DNA of 64,000 bases from a virus (IMGVR_UViG_3300025389_001023:50542-114541); one strand, 5' to 3'; shown: positions 478-11,346, counted from the first letter of the stretch. The notes: generated by a model from the sequence alone, not told the origin. Made by a program: numbers and translations.

Positions 478-1472
478 ACTAATTCTCCTACATAAGGATT
501 GTTTAACCATTTTGCGTAGGTCTCTGCCTGTTCGCTAATTTTTGATAACTCATACTTGCCACAGAAACGCATGAAGTGTACGCCCACTTGCGGAGTAACA
601 GTAGTACGTACTGTTTCACGAATGCGTTGGTCAACTGCATCCTTAATATCTTGTGGTTGTGCAGTTAAGTCAATAAGTGTACGATTGCGTTCGTAGTCCT
701 CACGCACACGATGCTCAACACCATCATGGTCTACCCAACGTTGCAACATCATGTTATTCCAATTAAAGCCCTGTTTGTTGCGATCCTCGTAAGCCTCGAC
801 CAATCCAACTTTGTTTTTGCTACCTTTAGTACGCACACCTGGATATGCACTAAACACGTTGTCACTTGCATCACCACGCATACATTTTTCAAATAAATGA
901 AATTTGGGATCACCCAACAGTTTAGCTTCTTTTGTTTTCTTGTCTACAATCAATTTACCTTTTTCGTCATGATAGCCCTCAAGAGTAATAAATTGATTTG
1001 TTATACCATTATATTGAAAAACATGTTGGTCAATTAATTGGATGTAATCCGTGTCGCTACTGATGATGTAGTGTTGGTCCTCAGGATGCAAATGGATGAA
1101 ACGTGCAATTAAATCATCAGCCTCAGCACGTTCGTGACGTAATACACTTACGTTGGTCTTTTCCTTAAGGAACGTAGTGAATAATTCATACGTTTCCCAA
1201 AACATTTTGTTTTCCTCAACCTCAGCCTCTGTTTGCTGAGTGGCGTCTACAATACGATTTTTCTTGTAAGGACCATAATAGTCTTTGCGCCATGAACGAC
1301 CTTCTAAACAGAATACAACATGGCCAATCCCAAACTTGCGTACAACTTGATTTACACTTGCAAGTGTTAAGTGTAGTGCCATACCGATCTTTTCTTCTGT
1401 TGTACTATTGCGACTTGCAATGTGACGGGCACGGAAGAATGTGTTAGCTGTGTCAATGAGTGCGTATTTCAT
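474..1472 (-). CDS. rnh: T4-type RNase H / 5'-3' (flap) exonuclease
   Basis: LID..N, SWRK..Y..YK.NR, EADD, SSD.D..QL and GD.SDN motifs of the FEN/5'-nuclease family. Confidence 0.9.
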   Translation of the reverse strand: MKYALIDTANTFFRARHIASRNSTTEEKIGMALHLTLASVNQVVRKFGIGHVVFCLEGRSWRKDYYGPYKKNRIVDATQQTEAEVEENKMFWETYELFTTFLKEKTNVSVLRHERAEADDLIARFIHLHPEDQHYIISSDTDYIQLIDQHVFQYNGITNQFITLEGYHDEKGKLIVDKKTKEAKLLGDPKFHLFEKCMRGDASDNVFSAYPGVRTKGSKNKVGLVEAYEDRNKQGFNWNNMMLQRWVDHDGVEHRVREDYERNRTLIDLTAQPQDIKDAVDQRIRETVRTTVTPQVGVHFMRFCGKYELSKISEQAETYAKWLNNPYVGELV

Positions 1473-2538: not shown

Positions 2539-3529
2539 GATTTTTAGCCTTGCTTTCGCACATTATATCAGCCCATTCATAATGTGTCAATGCCCAATCA
2601 TTTACTGCATCATTCCAGTAATAGTCACTATGGGCACGTAATTTTTGTTTGTTGTGACCACTCTCAATCAAGGGTGCAAGAGCGGGGCGTCCATGTTTGG
2701 TATGCTCAGTAAGTACATCTTCACGGCTGACGGAGTAATGTATAGTAGGACGCAGACCGCGCCAGCTATCAATAATTTTTTTAATACGGCTATCGTTGCT
2801 TTCAATATATTCTCCAGTTTTAATCCAGTGATGATGTATGTCTAAGACCAAAGCGAGATCCTTTGCGAGTTCCAGGGTGCTGTCAAGTCCCCATGACATT
2901 TCTTCGTTTTCGATTGTGATTGTGTTTCTTGCTTCGGGGGTAAGGCGTTTGAGGGCAGAGCGGATACCTTCGGGACCGGCTCGACCCGATATGTGTACAT
3001 TGATTTTAATGTCTTGAAATTGTTTACCGTACCCCATCCAACGTGCCATATCGACATGATATTCAAACTCCTCTATACTCTTATTTACTACCTCAGGACG
3101 GTCACTTGCTAAAACAACAAATTGGTCAGGGTGAAAACTTAGTTTAACATCATTGGCACGTGCAGTTTCACCAATTGGTGCCATCCAACGCTCTAAACTG
3201 TTTTGTACATCGGTAGATTTCCAAAAGTCACGATAGTCTTCATGTGTATAAAAACTAAACATATCACTTGTAAGACGAACCATGCGTAGTTCAGGAGCTA
3301 GTGTTGCTACCTTTTTAACAAGATTATGTGTGTTCATAATATTGCTTTTTGCAACATCTAAGATTTTTTGCTCTACAATATCACGTTTGTTACGCTTTGC
3401 CCATGCAAGAGTCGTGCCACCTGTGTTGAGTCCGTCAACACTGGCTATCTCGCCCTTCTTATTAATCTCTGCCCATTTACATGCAAAGCCGATACGTTTG
3501 ATAGATTGATTTGTCAAGATAATGTCCAA
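2489..3529 (-). CDS. uvsE: UV-damage endonuclease UvsE/UVDE
   Basis: RIGFAC, RLTSD, SFHPDQFVVL.S, EFEYH, IENEE, VLDIHHHW, HYS, HSDY and MCESKAKNLA motifs. Confidence 0.92.
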   Translation of the reverse strand: MDIILTNQSIKRIGFACKWAEINKKGEIASVDGLNTGGTTLAWAKRNKRDIVEQKILDVAKSNIMNTHNLVKKVATLAPELRMVRLTSDMFSFYTHEDYRDFWKSTDVQNSLERWMAPIGETARANDVKLSFHPDQFVVLASDRPEVVNKSIEEFEYHVDMARWMGYGKQFQDIKINVHISGRAGPEGIRSALKRLTPEARNTITIENEEMSWGLDSTLELAKDLALVLDIHHHWIKTGEYIESNDSRIKKIIDSWRGLRPTIHYSVSREDVLTEHTKHGRPALAPLIESGHNKQKLRAHSDYYWNDAVNDWALTHYEWADIMCESKAKNLASFKLYEKAKTHGII

Positions 3530-7290: not shown

Positions 7291-7532
7291 TTTTTTAATT
7301 TCCATATAATATGTTCAAGTTTATCATGCCATCTATGCTCAAACAAAGGTTCAGTAAGACCTGTATACAATGCAGTAACTTGGTAACCATACTTTAACCA
7401 AATGCGCTTACCAGATATGTCACATGTTTTTGGTAACCACGCAAATTTTAATTGAGCACCTATATACTTATTATAAAATAAATCATCAAATGAAGCCGTT
7501 TGGTAATTAGCACCCATCATTATGTTCCCCAC
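7287..7532 (-). CDS. hypothetical phage protein
   Basis: FAWLPKTC..SGKRIWL motif; coupled to its neighbours. Confidence 0.7.
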   Translation of the reverse strand: MGNIMMGANYQTASFDDLFYNKYIGAQLKFAWLPKTCDISGKRIWLKYGYQVTALYTGLTEPLFEHRWHDKLEHIIWKLKK

Positions 7533-8398
7533 TCATTCTTAAAGAGTGGTACTTGTAATCTGTCACTATAACGCCAGCCTCGCTTCATTGCGGCAAGGGC
7601 AACAGACTTAGCATTGAGATTATAAACAGACTCAACACCACCAACAGGCATAAGGTATACGTGACCCCTAAAACCCGACGCTCTAAATTGTTCAACTGCT
7701 TGTTCTGCATCTTTAACATCCTCTTCTGTCGCTACTACAAATTTCAAATATACGGTTCCAACTGTTTGATAATCACAAACAACTTTAGGCTTGATAGCAT
7801 CTTCCCAACTTTCACCACTACCTGGTAATTTAGCACTAACACTAAATGTAATTTCTTTGTTATGTAATCTATTCAATGCAGGCTGATGCATTTCTAACCA
7901 TTTAGTCTGTAAGTAGTGTTTGAATTCTGCTGTAAGTTCCTGTGTACCATTTGTCTCAAAAGTAATTTCTTTTAACTTTTGCATTTTAGGATGATTCAAC
8001 AAGTCAGGATACGCACGTTGCCAGCCCAACAATGGCTCACCACCTGTGATAACTAAATGTTCTTCTTTCCACTTATTGTGTGGAAGTATCTCCATAATAC
8101 GTGACACAATAGCATCACTTTCTAATACAGGACTTAAATCCTTAAAGTCAGGATGCCAACTTGCATAACTATCACACCCTGTACTAACTAGTGGCAGTTC
8201 TTCATACTTGTTATATAAATGTGCAACTGTTGCAATATCGTTAGCCTCTGCGCTTAGTTGTCCCCTAGGCATACCGAATCCGGCACACTTAAAGTTACAA
8301 CCAAACGTGCGTAAAAAGACTGAAGGTACTCCCATGTACCTTCCTTCACCTTGAATACTATAAAATAGTTCGGCTACTTTAATTTTACTCATCTTCAT
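7520..8398 (-). CDS. queE: 7-carboxy-7-deazaguanine synthase (radical SAM)
   Basis: ELFYSIQGEG, LRTFGCNFKC...GCDS, ITGGEPL, ETNGT, SVSAKL, YLMP and RLQV motifs. Confidence 0.92.
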   Translation of the reverse strand: MKMSKIKVAELFYSIQGEGRYMGVPSVFLRTFGCNFKCAGFGMPRGQLSAEANDIATVAHLYNKYEELPLVSTGCDSYASWHPDFKDLSPVLESDAIVSRIMEILPHNKWKEEHLVITGGEPLLGWQRAYPDLLNHPKMQKLKEITFETNGTQELTAEFKHYLQTKWLEMHQPALNRLHNKEITFSVSAKLPGSGESWEDAIKPKVVCDYQTVGTVYLKFVVATEEDVKDAEQAVEQFRASGFRGHVYLMPVGGVESVYNLNAKSVALAAMKRGWRYSDRLQVPLFKNEWGT

Positions 8399-8621: not shown

Positions 8622-8770
8622 TGTCTAATAACACCTGCTATAATAAAGCAATTTGTTGTGATATATGATAACACAATAATGGTACGAATACAAGCAATAC
8701 GGTCTGATTCTTTATCCGTACTGCCTGCTTTTTCGCCCAGTGCTTTGGCCCAAATTCGCCAAATATATTT
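8609..8770 (-). CDS. small membrane protein (start uncertain)
   Basis: IWRIWAKALGEKAG..D..SD.IA.IRT followed by a hydrophobic helix; the called ORF start overlaps queD. Confidence 0.5.
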   Translation of the reverse strand, partial: KYIWRIWAKALGEKAGSTDKESDRIACIRTIIVLSYITTNCFIIAGVIRHWNQ

Positions 8771-9296
8771 AGCCTTCGTAAGTAGCAGAATTAGCCCCGT
8801 GTTCAAATACTTCAACTGATTTTATCCTTACTGTTGGATTAATTGGATAACGCATATTGCCATTTACTAGTAAGTCTGCCATTTTATCGTATGCCATTTT
8901 AGCAAACATTTCACATCCTACAGCAGGAACAATACGTAAATCACACAACGCACCGCGCTCATGTGGTTTTAATTTATCCCACTCAGGAAGTGTGCCACTA
9001 CCCGGGATATTACCTTTGTTGTTCATGATTTTGAAAAAGTCTAGATGAGGATCATCTTCTGCAACAATCAATGTATGGTCAAACATATAATCTGCCCATG
9101 CTTTGAATTCTTTAAGTCCTCCAAAGTCCATACACCAGTTTTTGTCATCTAGTGTGTCGCACTCAAAAATTAATTTGATGCCTATCGAGTAACCATGCAA
9201 TGTTGAGCAATGGCTATGTGTAGCACGCCATTGTCTAAAACAGCAAGATAACCCTCTATCATTACCGTAAGTTTTTGTTGAATAAAATTTTGCCAT
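8769..9296 (-). CDS. queD: 6-carboxy-5,6,7,8-tetrahydropterin synthase
   Basis: HCSTLHGY, MDFGGLK, FDH, GCEMFA and VEVFEH motifs; next to queE and folE. Confidence 0.88.
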   Translation of the reverse strand: MAKFYSTKTYGNDRGLSCCFRQWRATHSHCSTLHGYSIGIKLIFECDTLDDKNWCMDFGGLKEFKAWADYMFDHTLIVAEDDPHLDFFKIMNNKGNIPGSGTLPEWDKLKPHERGALCDLRIVPAVGCEMFAKMAYDKMADLLVNGNMRYPINPTVRIKSVEVFEHGANSATYEG

Positions 9297-9370
9297 ACAT
9301 TTCTCCTATGTTAATTGTAGCATAGGCAGCAGAATTTGTAAAGCGGGAATGATGCCAAAAGACCGCTATA
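9297..9370 (-). ncRNA. candidate cis-regulatory pseudoknot / riboswitch-like leader of queD
   Basis: AGCGG/CCGCT stem, GGCA/TGCC pseudoknot, and a competing CCTATG/CATAGG hairpin covering the AGGAG RBS; TAAATA box at 9373-9378. Confidence 0.5.
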
Positions 9371-9371
9371 G

Positions 9372-9800
9372 TTATTTACCTTTTTTTAAAAGTTCTTGTG
9401 CAATAACTTTTGCCCATTTTTCACAATCTTGTTCGGTAACATGAAAATCGTATTTATATGGTGGTACAAACATTTTATTGGTATCTTCAAATCTACCTTT
9501 ATTAATTGTATCTACCCAAATAGTAATATCGGCATTAAAAATTTCACGCATTTCAGGTAATGGGCAAACAAAATCAACAATAGCAAAGTCTGATTCTAAT
9601 ATATCTGCCTCATTGCGTAGGCGGTTGGCTTGTCTAATACGACCTTCAATACTAAAATCCCAATCATTATATTTTTCTCTAATACGGTCTGCATTGATCC
9701 AAACACATTTAGATTGTGGATATAATTGATTGTATAATGAGTCTGCTAGTTTTGTTTTACCGGCACCAGGTAAACCCATAATTAATATTCGTTGTGTCAT
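9372..9800 (-). CDS. adenylylsulfate kinase-like (CysC-like) P-loop kinase
   Basis: GLPGAGKT, NADRIR, DWDFSIEGRIRQA and DFVCP motifs. Confidence 0.7.
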   Translation of the reverse strand: MTQRILIMGLPGAGKTKLADSLYNQLYPQSKCVWINADRIREKYNDWDFSIEGRIRQANRLRNEADILESDFAIVDFVCPLPEMREIFNADITIWVDTINKGRFEDTNKMFVPPYKYDFHVTEQDCEKWAKVIAQELLKKGK

Positions 9801-10267
9801 TTTGGTTTTTTACTGTGTTCTGCATCATAAACACGTTTACGCAAATTAGTGCTACTAAAACTATGGTCACGACCGTTAAACACAATCTCAATACCACGTT
9901 TCCAACATGCCTCATCACCTGTAAATTGTTTACCTTCATACTCTACACCTAAAACACGAACATCAATTGGTAAGGTTAATAGAATGTCAATTAGGTCTTG
10001 CTCAGTTGAATACACAACAACTTCATCAACATAACGGCATGCTGCCAATTGAATTTGTCGTTCAACAATACTTTGAATAGGTTTGTTCTTAGTATCTGGT
10101 CTGTCAATAGTAGGGTCAGTTTGTAATCCTGCAATTAAATAATCACAATGATTCTTAGCGTCACTAAGCATTGCAACATGTCCTGCATGTAACATATCAA
10201 AGGTACTAAATGTAATACCTATTTTTTTACCATCTTGTTTAAGTTTACGAATGTGATTGAAAATCAT
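9797..10267 (-). CDS. cytidylyltransferase (TagD/RfaE-like)
   Basis: FDMLHAGH (HxGH), PIQSIVER and RDHSFSST motifs. Confidence 0.88.
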   Translation of the reverse strand: MIFNHIRKLKQDGKKIGITFSTFDMLHAGHVAMLSDAKNHCDYLIAGLQTDPTIDRPDTKNKPIQSIVERQIQLAACRYVDEVVVYSTEQDLIDILLTLPIDVRVLGVEYEGKQFTGDEACWKRGIEIVFNGRDHSFSSTNLRKRVYDAEHSKKPK

Positions 10268-10668: not shown

Positions 10669-11346
10669 TTATTTACCCATTCGTGCAATACTTAAGAATT
10701 CACTACGTGCCGCGGCATCTGTTTTGAATCCACCACCTAAACGAACAGTAACTGTACTACTACCTGTATCCTCAACACCACGTGACTTTACGCAATAATG
10801 TTGTGCATCAATCATTACTGCAACATCTTCAGTCTCCAGTATAAATTGGAGAGTGTGGAAGATTTGTTCGGTGAGTCGCTCTTGGATTTGAGGGCGCTTA
10901 CTGAAATACTCAACAATACGGTTAATTTTTGATAATCCGAGGACTTTCTGTTTAGGCACATATGCCACAGTAGCGAGACCATCAATGACAACAAAGTGAT
11001 GTTCGCAATTGCTTTGGACATTAACGTTGCGTTCAACGACCATTTCATTGTAACGCATCTTGTTATCGACAGTCGTACACTTTGGAAATGCATCATAATC
11101 TAATCCCCAGAAAATTTCGTTAACGTACATTTTAGCAACACGCTTGGGTGTTTCCATCAAGCTATCATCACTTAGGTCTAGACCTAATACTTGCATGATA
11201 TGGCTAAAACTTTTTTCGATTTCTGCAATTTTGTCTTTACGATCCAATGCAGTTTGAAATGTAGGAGTTTCTACTCCCATAGCTACCAAGTGCTGATGTA
11301 CTTTTTGACCTAACTCAGGGTCGGTTTTCGTTTTGTTATATGACAT
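10669..11346 (-). CDS. folE: GTP cyclohydrolase I
   Basis: ETPKRVAKMY, CEHHF, GLSKINR, RPQIQERLT and HYCVKSRGV motifs. Confidence 0.96.
   Translation of the reverse strand: MSYNKTKTDPELGQKVHQHLVAMGVETPTFQTALDRKDKIAEIEKSFSHIMQVLGLDLSDDSLMETPKRVAKMYVNEIFWGLDYDAFPKCTTVDNKMRYNEMVVERNVNVQSNCEHHFVVIDGLATVAYVPKQKVLGLSKINRIVEYFSKRPQIQERLTEQIFHTLQFILETEDVAVMIDAQHYCVKSRGVEDTGSSTVTVRLGGGFKTDAAARSEFLSIARMGK

Follow-up and report, generated by a model that had tools for sequence, protein, structure and literature searches.

A conserved pseudoknot in phage queD leaders as a candidate riboswitch-like RNA class

We find an H-type pseudoknot in the leader of a viral QueD-like gene, and comparing the leader sequences of related phages confirms that this conserved pseudoknot is real. 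Its sequence and context suggest a new, so far phage-only, riboswitch-like RNA class with a shape related to preQ1-I. With moderate confidence, we consider it probable that the queD leader is a cis-acting RNA switch, in which a pseudoknot stabilised by an effector turns translation ON.

The queD leader and its pseudoknot

The window is a 64,000-nt stretch of an IMG/VR virus contig (IMGVR_UViG_3300025389_001023; record of 114,541 bp, ~30% complete by CheckV). The minus strand of 9297-9378 is a letter-for-letter match to the stems quoted in the original prediction. The leader is carried in the 75-nt intergenic gap between an upstream kinase-like ORF (9372-9800, minus strand; TAA stop codon at 9374-9372) and a QueD-like ORF of 175 aa (8769-9296, minus strand; ATG at 9294-9296), which matches Pfam PTPS with an E-value of 3.6e-15. 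The same neighbourhood holds folE (10669-11346), a nucleotidyltransferase-like gene (9797-10267), a QueE-like radical-SAM gene (7520-8398) and glycosyltransferase-like genes. The Pfam match, these neighbours and the gene association across phages all agree with the proposal that the leader belongs to a QueD-like gene of a 7-deazaguanine-type cluster. We chose the name 'QueD-like' because the protein scored 35.5 bits against NCBIfam QueD, below the curated cut-off of 89; the QueE-like protein scored 56 bits against its curated cut-off of 260. The product of the QueD-like enzyme may be non-canonical. Pfam models of QueC (PF06508) and TGT (PF01702) had no match in the 114,541-bp record; the genes may be located in the ~70% of the genome that the record does not cover, they may have diverged too far, or the pathway may end at or before CDG. 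Because the record is ~30% complete, their absence says nothing on the end product of the pathway. At the motif site, the QueD-like protein (8769-9296) shows C-S-T-L-H-G-Y, where we take the QueD motif to be Cx3HGH.

Read 5′ to 3′ on the minus strand, the aptamer (~50 nt) begins with the 5′ strand of the first stem (S1), AGCGG (9363-9367), which pairs with CCGCU (9342-9346); the pairing of the latter strand was counted in the two alignments, A1 and A2, described below. Loop 1, UCUUUU (9357-9362), has a C in the second and a U in the third position that are invariant in the family (A1 and A2). It is followed by the 5′ strand of the second stem (S2), GGCA (9353-9356), which resembles the UGGCA of the start region and pairs with UGCC (9325-9328). 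Loop 2, UCAUUC (9347-9352), contains an invariant UCA, and the C abutting the 3′ strand of S1 is also invariant. In loop 3, UUACAAAUUCUGC (9329-9341), three A residues at alternate positions are invariant and are followed by an invariant UCUGC. S1 has 5 bp; S2 has 4 bp in the window and reaches up to 7 bp in other leaders. UGCC, the S2 3′ strand, is the switching sequence, and its last two C residues are the first two bases of the hairpin masking the Shine-Dalgarno (SD) sequence. The original prediction had extended S2 by CA/UG past a U·C mismatch. This extension falls in the invariant nucleotides UCA and CUGC; the extra pairs are possible, and invariant columns give no covariation signal. There was no second copy of the motif in the window, where the next best matches scored ~10 bits or less. 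We dropped a terminator reading of S1, which has a 16-nt loop and no U-run and was not called by a terminator scan.

Folding a 101-nt stretch around the leader gave a nested minimum free energy of -16.6 kcal/mol, no better than that of shuffled sequences (-15.9 ± 2.8; z -0.24), and the nested structure did not use S1. Single-sequence folding is uninformative for a pseudoknot. We also ran the leader against Rfam, scanning the window and a related locus (L010) in 1301-nt, 96-nt and 141-nt stretches. No family matched: preQ1-I (RF00522), preQ1-II and preQ1-III had no match at E ≤ 10, the scans at the three scales otherwise gave chance matches of 10-21 bits (plastid 3′UTR, snoRNAs, miRNAs), and freshwater-2 reached 12 bits against a threshold of 49.9. 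As the 101-nt stretch alone was not beyond chance and no Rfam family matched, a comparative test was needed.

Relatives of the QueD-like protein were found at 354 loci in IMG/VR, of which we used the best 80 (78-88% amino-acid identity). The upstream regions of these 80 loci share a conserved block in which compensatory changes are visible. The first alignment, A1, consists of 51 distinct leaders picked via QueD protein similarity alone, without any RNA pattern. In its pair columns (S1, 11-15 with 37-41; S2, 22-26 with 57-61), 93.6% of the pair cells are standard pairs compared to 80.5 ± 0.9% with shuffled partners (0 of 500 shuffles reach the observed value); the leaders are related by descent, and such cell counts overstate the independent events. 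Sliding the 3′ partners by 1-3 columns decreased pairing to 36-57%. Eight of the ten A1 pairs were altered on both sides. For the second alignment, we used a covariance model (R1) with S1 as its sole structure, against which true instances score 37-74 bits. A2 contains 98 distinct instances aligned with R1; S2 is absent from the model, so the alignment was not fitted to S2. In A2, S1 is 99.2% paired, with four of five pairs altered on both sides, and the seven S2 pairs are 87% paired. The original prediction of an H-type pseudoknot formed by S1 and S2 is therefore upheld, as both stems covary in the queD leaders of related phages (51 and 98 sequences).

The exchanged pairs of S1 in A2 are AU75/UA21, GC89/CG5/UA3, CG68/AU18/UA12 and GC95/CG3, and those of S2 are GC43/GU23/AU20, AU32/GU18/CG5/GC4/UA3 and UA43/CG18. 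Across the family, the core pairs of S2 appear as GC/GU/AU, CG/GU/AU and AU/GU/CG/GC/UA. G-U pairs are frequent and would be A·C on the other strand, which identifies the minus-strand transcript as the RNA in question. For S1 there are seven fully complementary variants, five of which are found with more than one type of expression platform; the changes are thus not one inherited event. About 17 nucleotides of the loops are invariant, in contrast to the freely varying stems. As 14 loop positions were fixed in the pattern used to retrieve the loci L201-L280, our statements on invariant loops rest on A1 and not on A2.

Masking helices and wiring of the switch

In the window, the SD sequence AGGAG (9303-9307, minus strand) lies 6 nt ahead of the ATG. 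Its AGG is paired in a hairpin (9305-9326, minus strand) made of CCUAUG (9326-9321), a 10-nt loop and CAUAGG (9310-9305), as given by the RNAalifold consensus of 23 type-A platforms. C9326 and C9325 are common to this hairpin and to the 3′ strand of S2, so the two structures are mutually exclusive.

Three platform types follow one and the same aptamer. In type A, to which the window belongs, the helix CCUAUG/CAUAGG covers the AGG of the SD sequence. The helices of type B (UGUCAUC/GAUGGCA) and type C (GUCAUUG/CAAUGGC) cover the start codon. The alifold consensus helices of all three types begin within the 3′ strand of S2. In types B and C, the S2 3′ strand, extended by a few bases, serves as the 5′ strand of the masking helix, so that the 5′ strand of S2 in the aptamer mimics the start region (AUGGCA). 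Six consecutive pairs of the start-codon helix are intact in all 45 distinct leaders of types B and C. The pair at AUG-1 is U-A in 20 and C-G in 25 of these leaders, with no mismatch. The type-A hairpin hardly varies; in place of covariation, its case is made by conservation, energy and the parallel with types B and C. The predicted conflict between the knot and a hairpin occluding the ribosome-binding site (RBS) is borne out by the two shared C residues, the alifold helices and the 45 intact leaders of types B and C.

We estimated accessibility by folding the leaders free, and then with the aptamer blocked through the 3′ strand of S2. In the folding model, the unpaired fraction of the type-A SD window rose from 0.33 in the free to 0.76 in the aptamer-locked state. 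The AUG was unpaired at 0.09 and 0.35 in type B, and at 0.00 and 0.41 in type C, respectively. Locking the aptamer thus raised the modelled accessibility of the RBS in types A, B and C. The shift is moderate in type A, where the -13 to +4 window went from 0.47 to 0.60 and the AUG became less accessible when locked, through a weak alternative of -2.3 kcal/mol. The energies computed for the window are -5.8 kcal/mol for the hairpin, -4.8 kcal/mol for S1 and about -5.2 kcal/mol for the S2 strands before loop penalties. With the hairpin at -5.8 and S2 at about -5.2, the masked state should win unless the knot is stabilised. From these models we infer an ON wiring, in which formation of the knot should free the ribosome site. 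The translational ON direction put forward in the original prediction agrees with this structural reading, the 3′ strand of S2 being the anti-SD or anti-start strand.

Distribution and promoter context

Searching viral sequences with a loop-based pattern, we obtained at least 80 matches, of which 80 were listed and 73 were real as judged by R1. Among the viral matches listed, 71 of the 73 real instances sit directly before a QueD gene of the window's type. In L220, the motif precedes a QueD-like gene of a second PTPS subfamily. In L276 (5081-8732, minus strand), it heads an operon of a cupin gene, a second-subfamily QueD-like gene and a KDO8P/DAHP-synthase-family gene, with folE upstream; the gene content of this operon hints at a sugar-acid-linked base modification. 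The same pattern run on 185,579 bacterial and archaeal species genomes (one each) gave at least 119 matches, and none of the 80 listed was real. Among these, the best score was 20 bits, compared to 37-74 bits for true instances; the prokaryote matches listed are chance, and the listed set is a sample rather than a census. A blastn search of 50,697 GenBank phages yielded five weak matches, all within the queD coding sequence, and found the leader in no isolate. Among the matches listed, the motif is so far phage-only.

In the QueD-anchored loci (best 80 of 354), all leaders with an intergenic gap carry the motif. Five of the 55 leader types are without it, and there queD abuts or overlaps the upstream gene. 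The relatives lacking the motif are L021, L066, L067, L068 and L070 (at about 2900-3000), so the switch is dispensable in some lineages. Two loci, L050 and L056, contain a second full copy (1340-1399, plus strand) before a 312-aa radical-SAM ORF with a TTG start, which comes after a xanthine-phosphoribosyltransferase-like ORF in the same cluster. This extra copy has another masking hairpin, an AU-rich stem, and an SD sequence is not clearly discernible. In L033, L035, L038 and L039 (2260-2355, plus strand), a sigma-70 promoter and the S1 hairpin are duplicated without loop 3 or S2. The truncated copy precedes an inserted 183-aa ORF with a NUMOD3 motif, which by its sequence looks like a homing endonuclease and lies just upstream of the complete motif and queD.

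A TAAATA box (9373-9378, minus strand) precedes the aptamer in the window. With its flank, GGTAAATA (9373-9380), it resembles a T4 late promoter in sequence, and we assign it this function putatively. GGTAAATA ends 5 nt ahead of S1 and overlaps the stop codon of the kinase-like ORF (9374-9372). By analogy with T4 geometry, +1 is predicted at or next to the first base of S1. In type A, TAAATA ends 5-13 nt ahead of S1 in 25 of 34 distinct leaders, compared to 0.9% of random 20-nt windows from the same loci; this enrichment is only suggestive, because a Lys codon and the stop codon of the upstream gene make up much of the TAAATA signal, and because the loci are related. The T4-type late promoter is TATAAATA (PMC9004378). 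A perfect TATAAATA lies at 9451-9458 (minus strand) inside the kinase-like ORF, 84 nt upstream of S1. This sequence is not enriched in the 64,000-nt window (5 matches vs 11.7 expected), so the late-promoter reading rests on the position-specific TAAATA ahead of S1.

The other types show a different promoter context. A sigma-70 promoter of at least 10/12, usually ending 7 nt before S1, was found in 19 of 32 distinct type-C leaders, and one of at least 10/12 in 8 of 32 distinct type-B leaders. None of the 34 distinct type-A leaders had an upstream sigma-70 promoter at this threshold. From these sequences, we predict for types A, B and C alike that the mRNA begins with the aptamer or within a few bases of it.

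The type-A switch of the window also contains a putative sigma-70-like promoter (9314-9342, minus strand), composed of TTTACA (9342-9337), a 17-nt spacer and TGC-TACAAT (-10 at 9319-9314). Its -35 lies in loop 3 and its -10 in the loop of the SD hairpin. It scored 10/12 and has a TG extended -10. A promoter of at least 9/12 was found at the same place in 18 of 21 distinct type-A leaders, and two more have a 9/12 promoter only elsewhere. The type-A consensus is T[TA]TACA, 17-18 nt, TGnTAWAAT. Transcripts from this promoter would start just before AGGAG without the anti-SD strand, and would thus escape the switch. The arrangement suggests that host-type transcription would give unregulated expression, while late or read-through transcripts would be controlled by the switch. 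Both the position of the aptamer at the predicted 5′ end of the mRNA and the sigma-70-like promoter within the type-A switch may be new.

Proposed mechanism, rival readings and relation to known RNAs

In the proposed mechanism, the slightly more stable masking helix would form when no effector is present, and translation would be off. An effector would stabilise the pseudoknot and hold the anti-SD bases in S2; the ribosome site would then open, and the QueD-like gene would be translated. For the effector, a small molecule that binds where S1 and S2 meet is the most likely candidate. The pathway context and the invariant C at this junction lead us to guess at a guanine-like heterocycle belonging to the 7-deazaguanine pathway or close to it, such as a 7-deazaguanine, a pterin (e.g. 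the QueD substrate) or guanine. It is unusual for a biosynthetic gene to carry an ON switch, since the known preQ1 switches are OFF switches. As a speculation, ON control could reflect induction by the substrate or a signal that base exchange is under way. In this model we infer the dependence on a ligand, its identity, the ON direction in vivo and the start of transcription.

The leader shares general features with riboswitches, having a covarying structured aptamer in the 5′ leader of a metabolic gene and an expression platform that is mutually exclusive with it. Translational ON riboswitches (e.g. the add adenine riboswitch) free the RBS when the ligand-stabilised aptamer captures the strand that pairs with the SD sequence or start codon. 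The queD aptamer would similarly capture the strand otherwise paired with the SD sequence or start codon. The add riboswitch is a three-way junction, whereas the queD leader is a pseudoknot and would have a different ligand. Marine myophages carry glutamine riboswitches, a precedent for T4-like phages with riboswitches of their own; these belong to the bacterial glnA RNA family (PMC9004378), whereas the queD-leader motif is so far without a bacterial counterpart.

The closest comparison in shape is preQ1-I, an H-type pseudoknot with the specificity cytidine in L2, in which an L1 uridine and L3 adenines read the ligand, 4-5 conserved adenines directly precede P2, and the 3′ strand of P2 belongs to the SD sequence (PMC10622847). 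The queD motif shares with preQ1-I the fold of a small H-type pseudoknot, in which a first stem of 5 bp is combined with a short second one. Both RNAs sit in leaders of genes that act on the route from GTP to 7-deazaguanine, and for the queD motif, too, translation is predicted to be controlled through the 3′ strand of the second stem. An invariant C just ahead of the S1 3′ strand lies at the position of the specificity cytidine, and the invariant CU of loop 1 and the three invariant A residues of loop 3 take analogous places; these equivalences are positional only. Unlike preQ1-I, the motif has ~50 rather than ~34 nt, a second stem of up to 7 bp, and an A-rich part that directly follows S1 and is separated from the 3′ strand of S2 by an invariant YUCUGC. 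The 3′ strand of P2 in preQ1-I lies in or adjoins the SD sequence and gives an OFF switch, whereas that of S2 is anti-SD or anti-start and would give an ON switch. A further difference is that the queD motif has so far been found only in phage contigs. The likeness to preQ1-I claimed in the original prediction therefore stands for the H-type topology and the que-type leader, and falls for the Rfam model, the size and the extra YUCUGC. Because it departs from the Rfam model, the adenine run, the size and the OFF wiring, we did not file the motif as preQ1-I. It could still be a very divergent true member that binds preQ1 or preQ0 with an inverted platform, as its 5-bp P1 with a near-invariant top G-C pair, the invariant C directly 5′ of the P1 3′ strand, the loop 1 U, the loop 3 A residues and the queuosine-pathway-type gene that it precedes would suggest. 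We regard this as quite unlikely, given that RF00522, preQ1-II and preQ1-III were unmatched at E ≤ 10 on the 96-141-nt stretches, that the YUCUGC between the A-rich part and P2 is extra and loops 1 and 2 are longer, that the P2 3′ strand has the anti-SD or anti-start role, and that none of the prokaryote matches listed is real. The preQ1 riboswitches comprise three classes with five motifs, none of which resembles the queD-leader motif (PMC11625349). A full-text search of the literature, with incomplete coverage, found no description of such a motif.

Another reading assigns the effector role to a protein, encoded by phage or host, that would bind the pseudoknot or its invariant loops and thereby tip the equilibrium between knot and masking helix; proteins act in this way at the T4 gene 32 pseudoknot and at ribosomal-protein operators. 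A protein operator would have the same anatomy, a conserved pseudoknot with invariant single-stranded nucleotides by the RBS; T4-type phages use translational repressors, and the timing of phage expression is often controlled by proteins. At the T4 gene 32 operator, the protein bound is the gene's own ssDNA-binding product, which attaches cooperatively to an unstructured tract. The queD leader resembles it as an H-type pseudoknot at the leader 5′ end with a role in translational control, both predicted here. The anatomy of the gene 32-type operator named in the original prediction thus fits, but the gene downstream codes for a PTPS/QueD-like enzyme rather than for a protein that binds RNA or ssDNA, and switching would occur by a helix exchange that is backed by covariation. 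Because the product is an enzyme, the autogenous logic of gene 32 does not carry over directly, and a small T-fold enzyme (Pfam PTPS) offers no obvious autogenous basis. The motif is moreover tied to one metabolic gene family across differing phages and promoter contexts, which is typical of riboswitches, and its size and topology parallel a known metabolite aptamer of the same pathway. A protein operator is in our view unlikely, if by no means far-fetched. We give even less credit to an element that senses nothing and would keep translation at a constant level, serve as a timer of folding or as a thermometer, or shield the mRNA 5′ end from decay. Its place at the extreme 5′ end of the predicted transcript would suit such a role, as would two states so close in energy that temperature or transcription speed could tip the balance; about 17 invariant loop nucleotides beside freely varying stems are hard to explain structurally, and the strict tie to one enzyme family also speaks against it. 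It is scarcely credible that the conserved signal is DNA only, namely the sigma-70 promoter (TTTACA, 17 nt, TGnTACAAT) for queD with incidental RNA stems. That promoter scores 10/12 with an extended -10 in the window and is kept in most type-A leaders, but types B and C share the aptamer without an internal promoter, their promoters being upstream, and the compensatory changes and G-U pairs of S1 and S2 would be meaningless for a promoter. We therefore rejected the promoter as the sole explanation on the grounds of stem covariation and of types B and C; the embedded promoter may well be present alongside the RNA element.

Returning to the effector-stabilised ON switch, we hold a fuller version of it tentatively, with slightly more doubt than belief: a phage-only class would sense an intermediate of 7-deazaguanine DNA modification, or a by-product of it (such as guanine from base exchange, H2NTP, CPH4, CDG or preQ0), and turn translation of the QueD-like gene ON, with dual promoters in the T4-like members. 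In this dual-promoter design, late or read-through transcripts would carry the switch, and transcripts from the embedded sigma-70-type promoter, through which queD could escape the switch, would lack its control.

The motif is abundant, with 354 QueD-anchored loci in IMG/VR alone. To our knowledge, riboswitches are rare in phages and the known ones are borrowed bacterial families. If our reading is true, the queD leader would represent a riboswitch class found only in viruses, related in shape to the preQ1-I aptamer but of the ON type where preQ1-I is of the OFF type. The toolbox would gain a compact pseudoknot aptamer of the ON type, ~50 nt in size. 7-Deazaguanine chemistry shields phage DNA from restriction enzymes, and the leader would be the first RNA switch tied to DNA hypermodification. 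Its ligand would reveal the signal that a giant phage reads in the cell to time its base modification.
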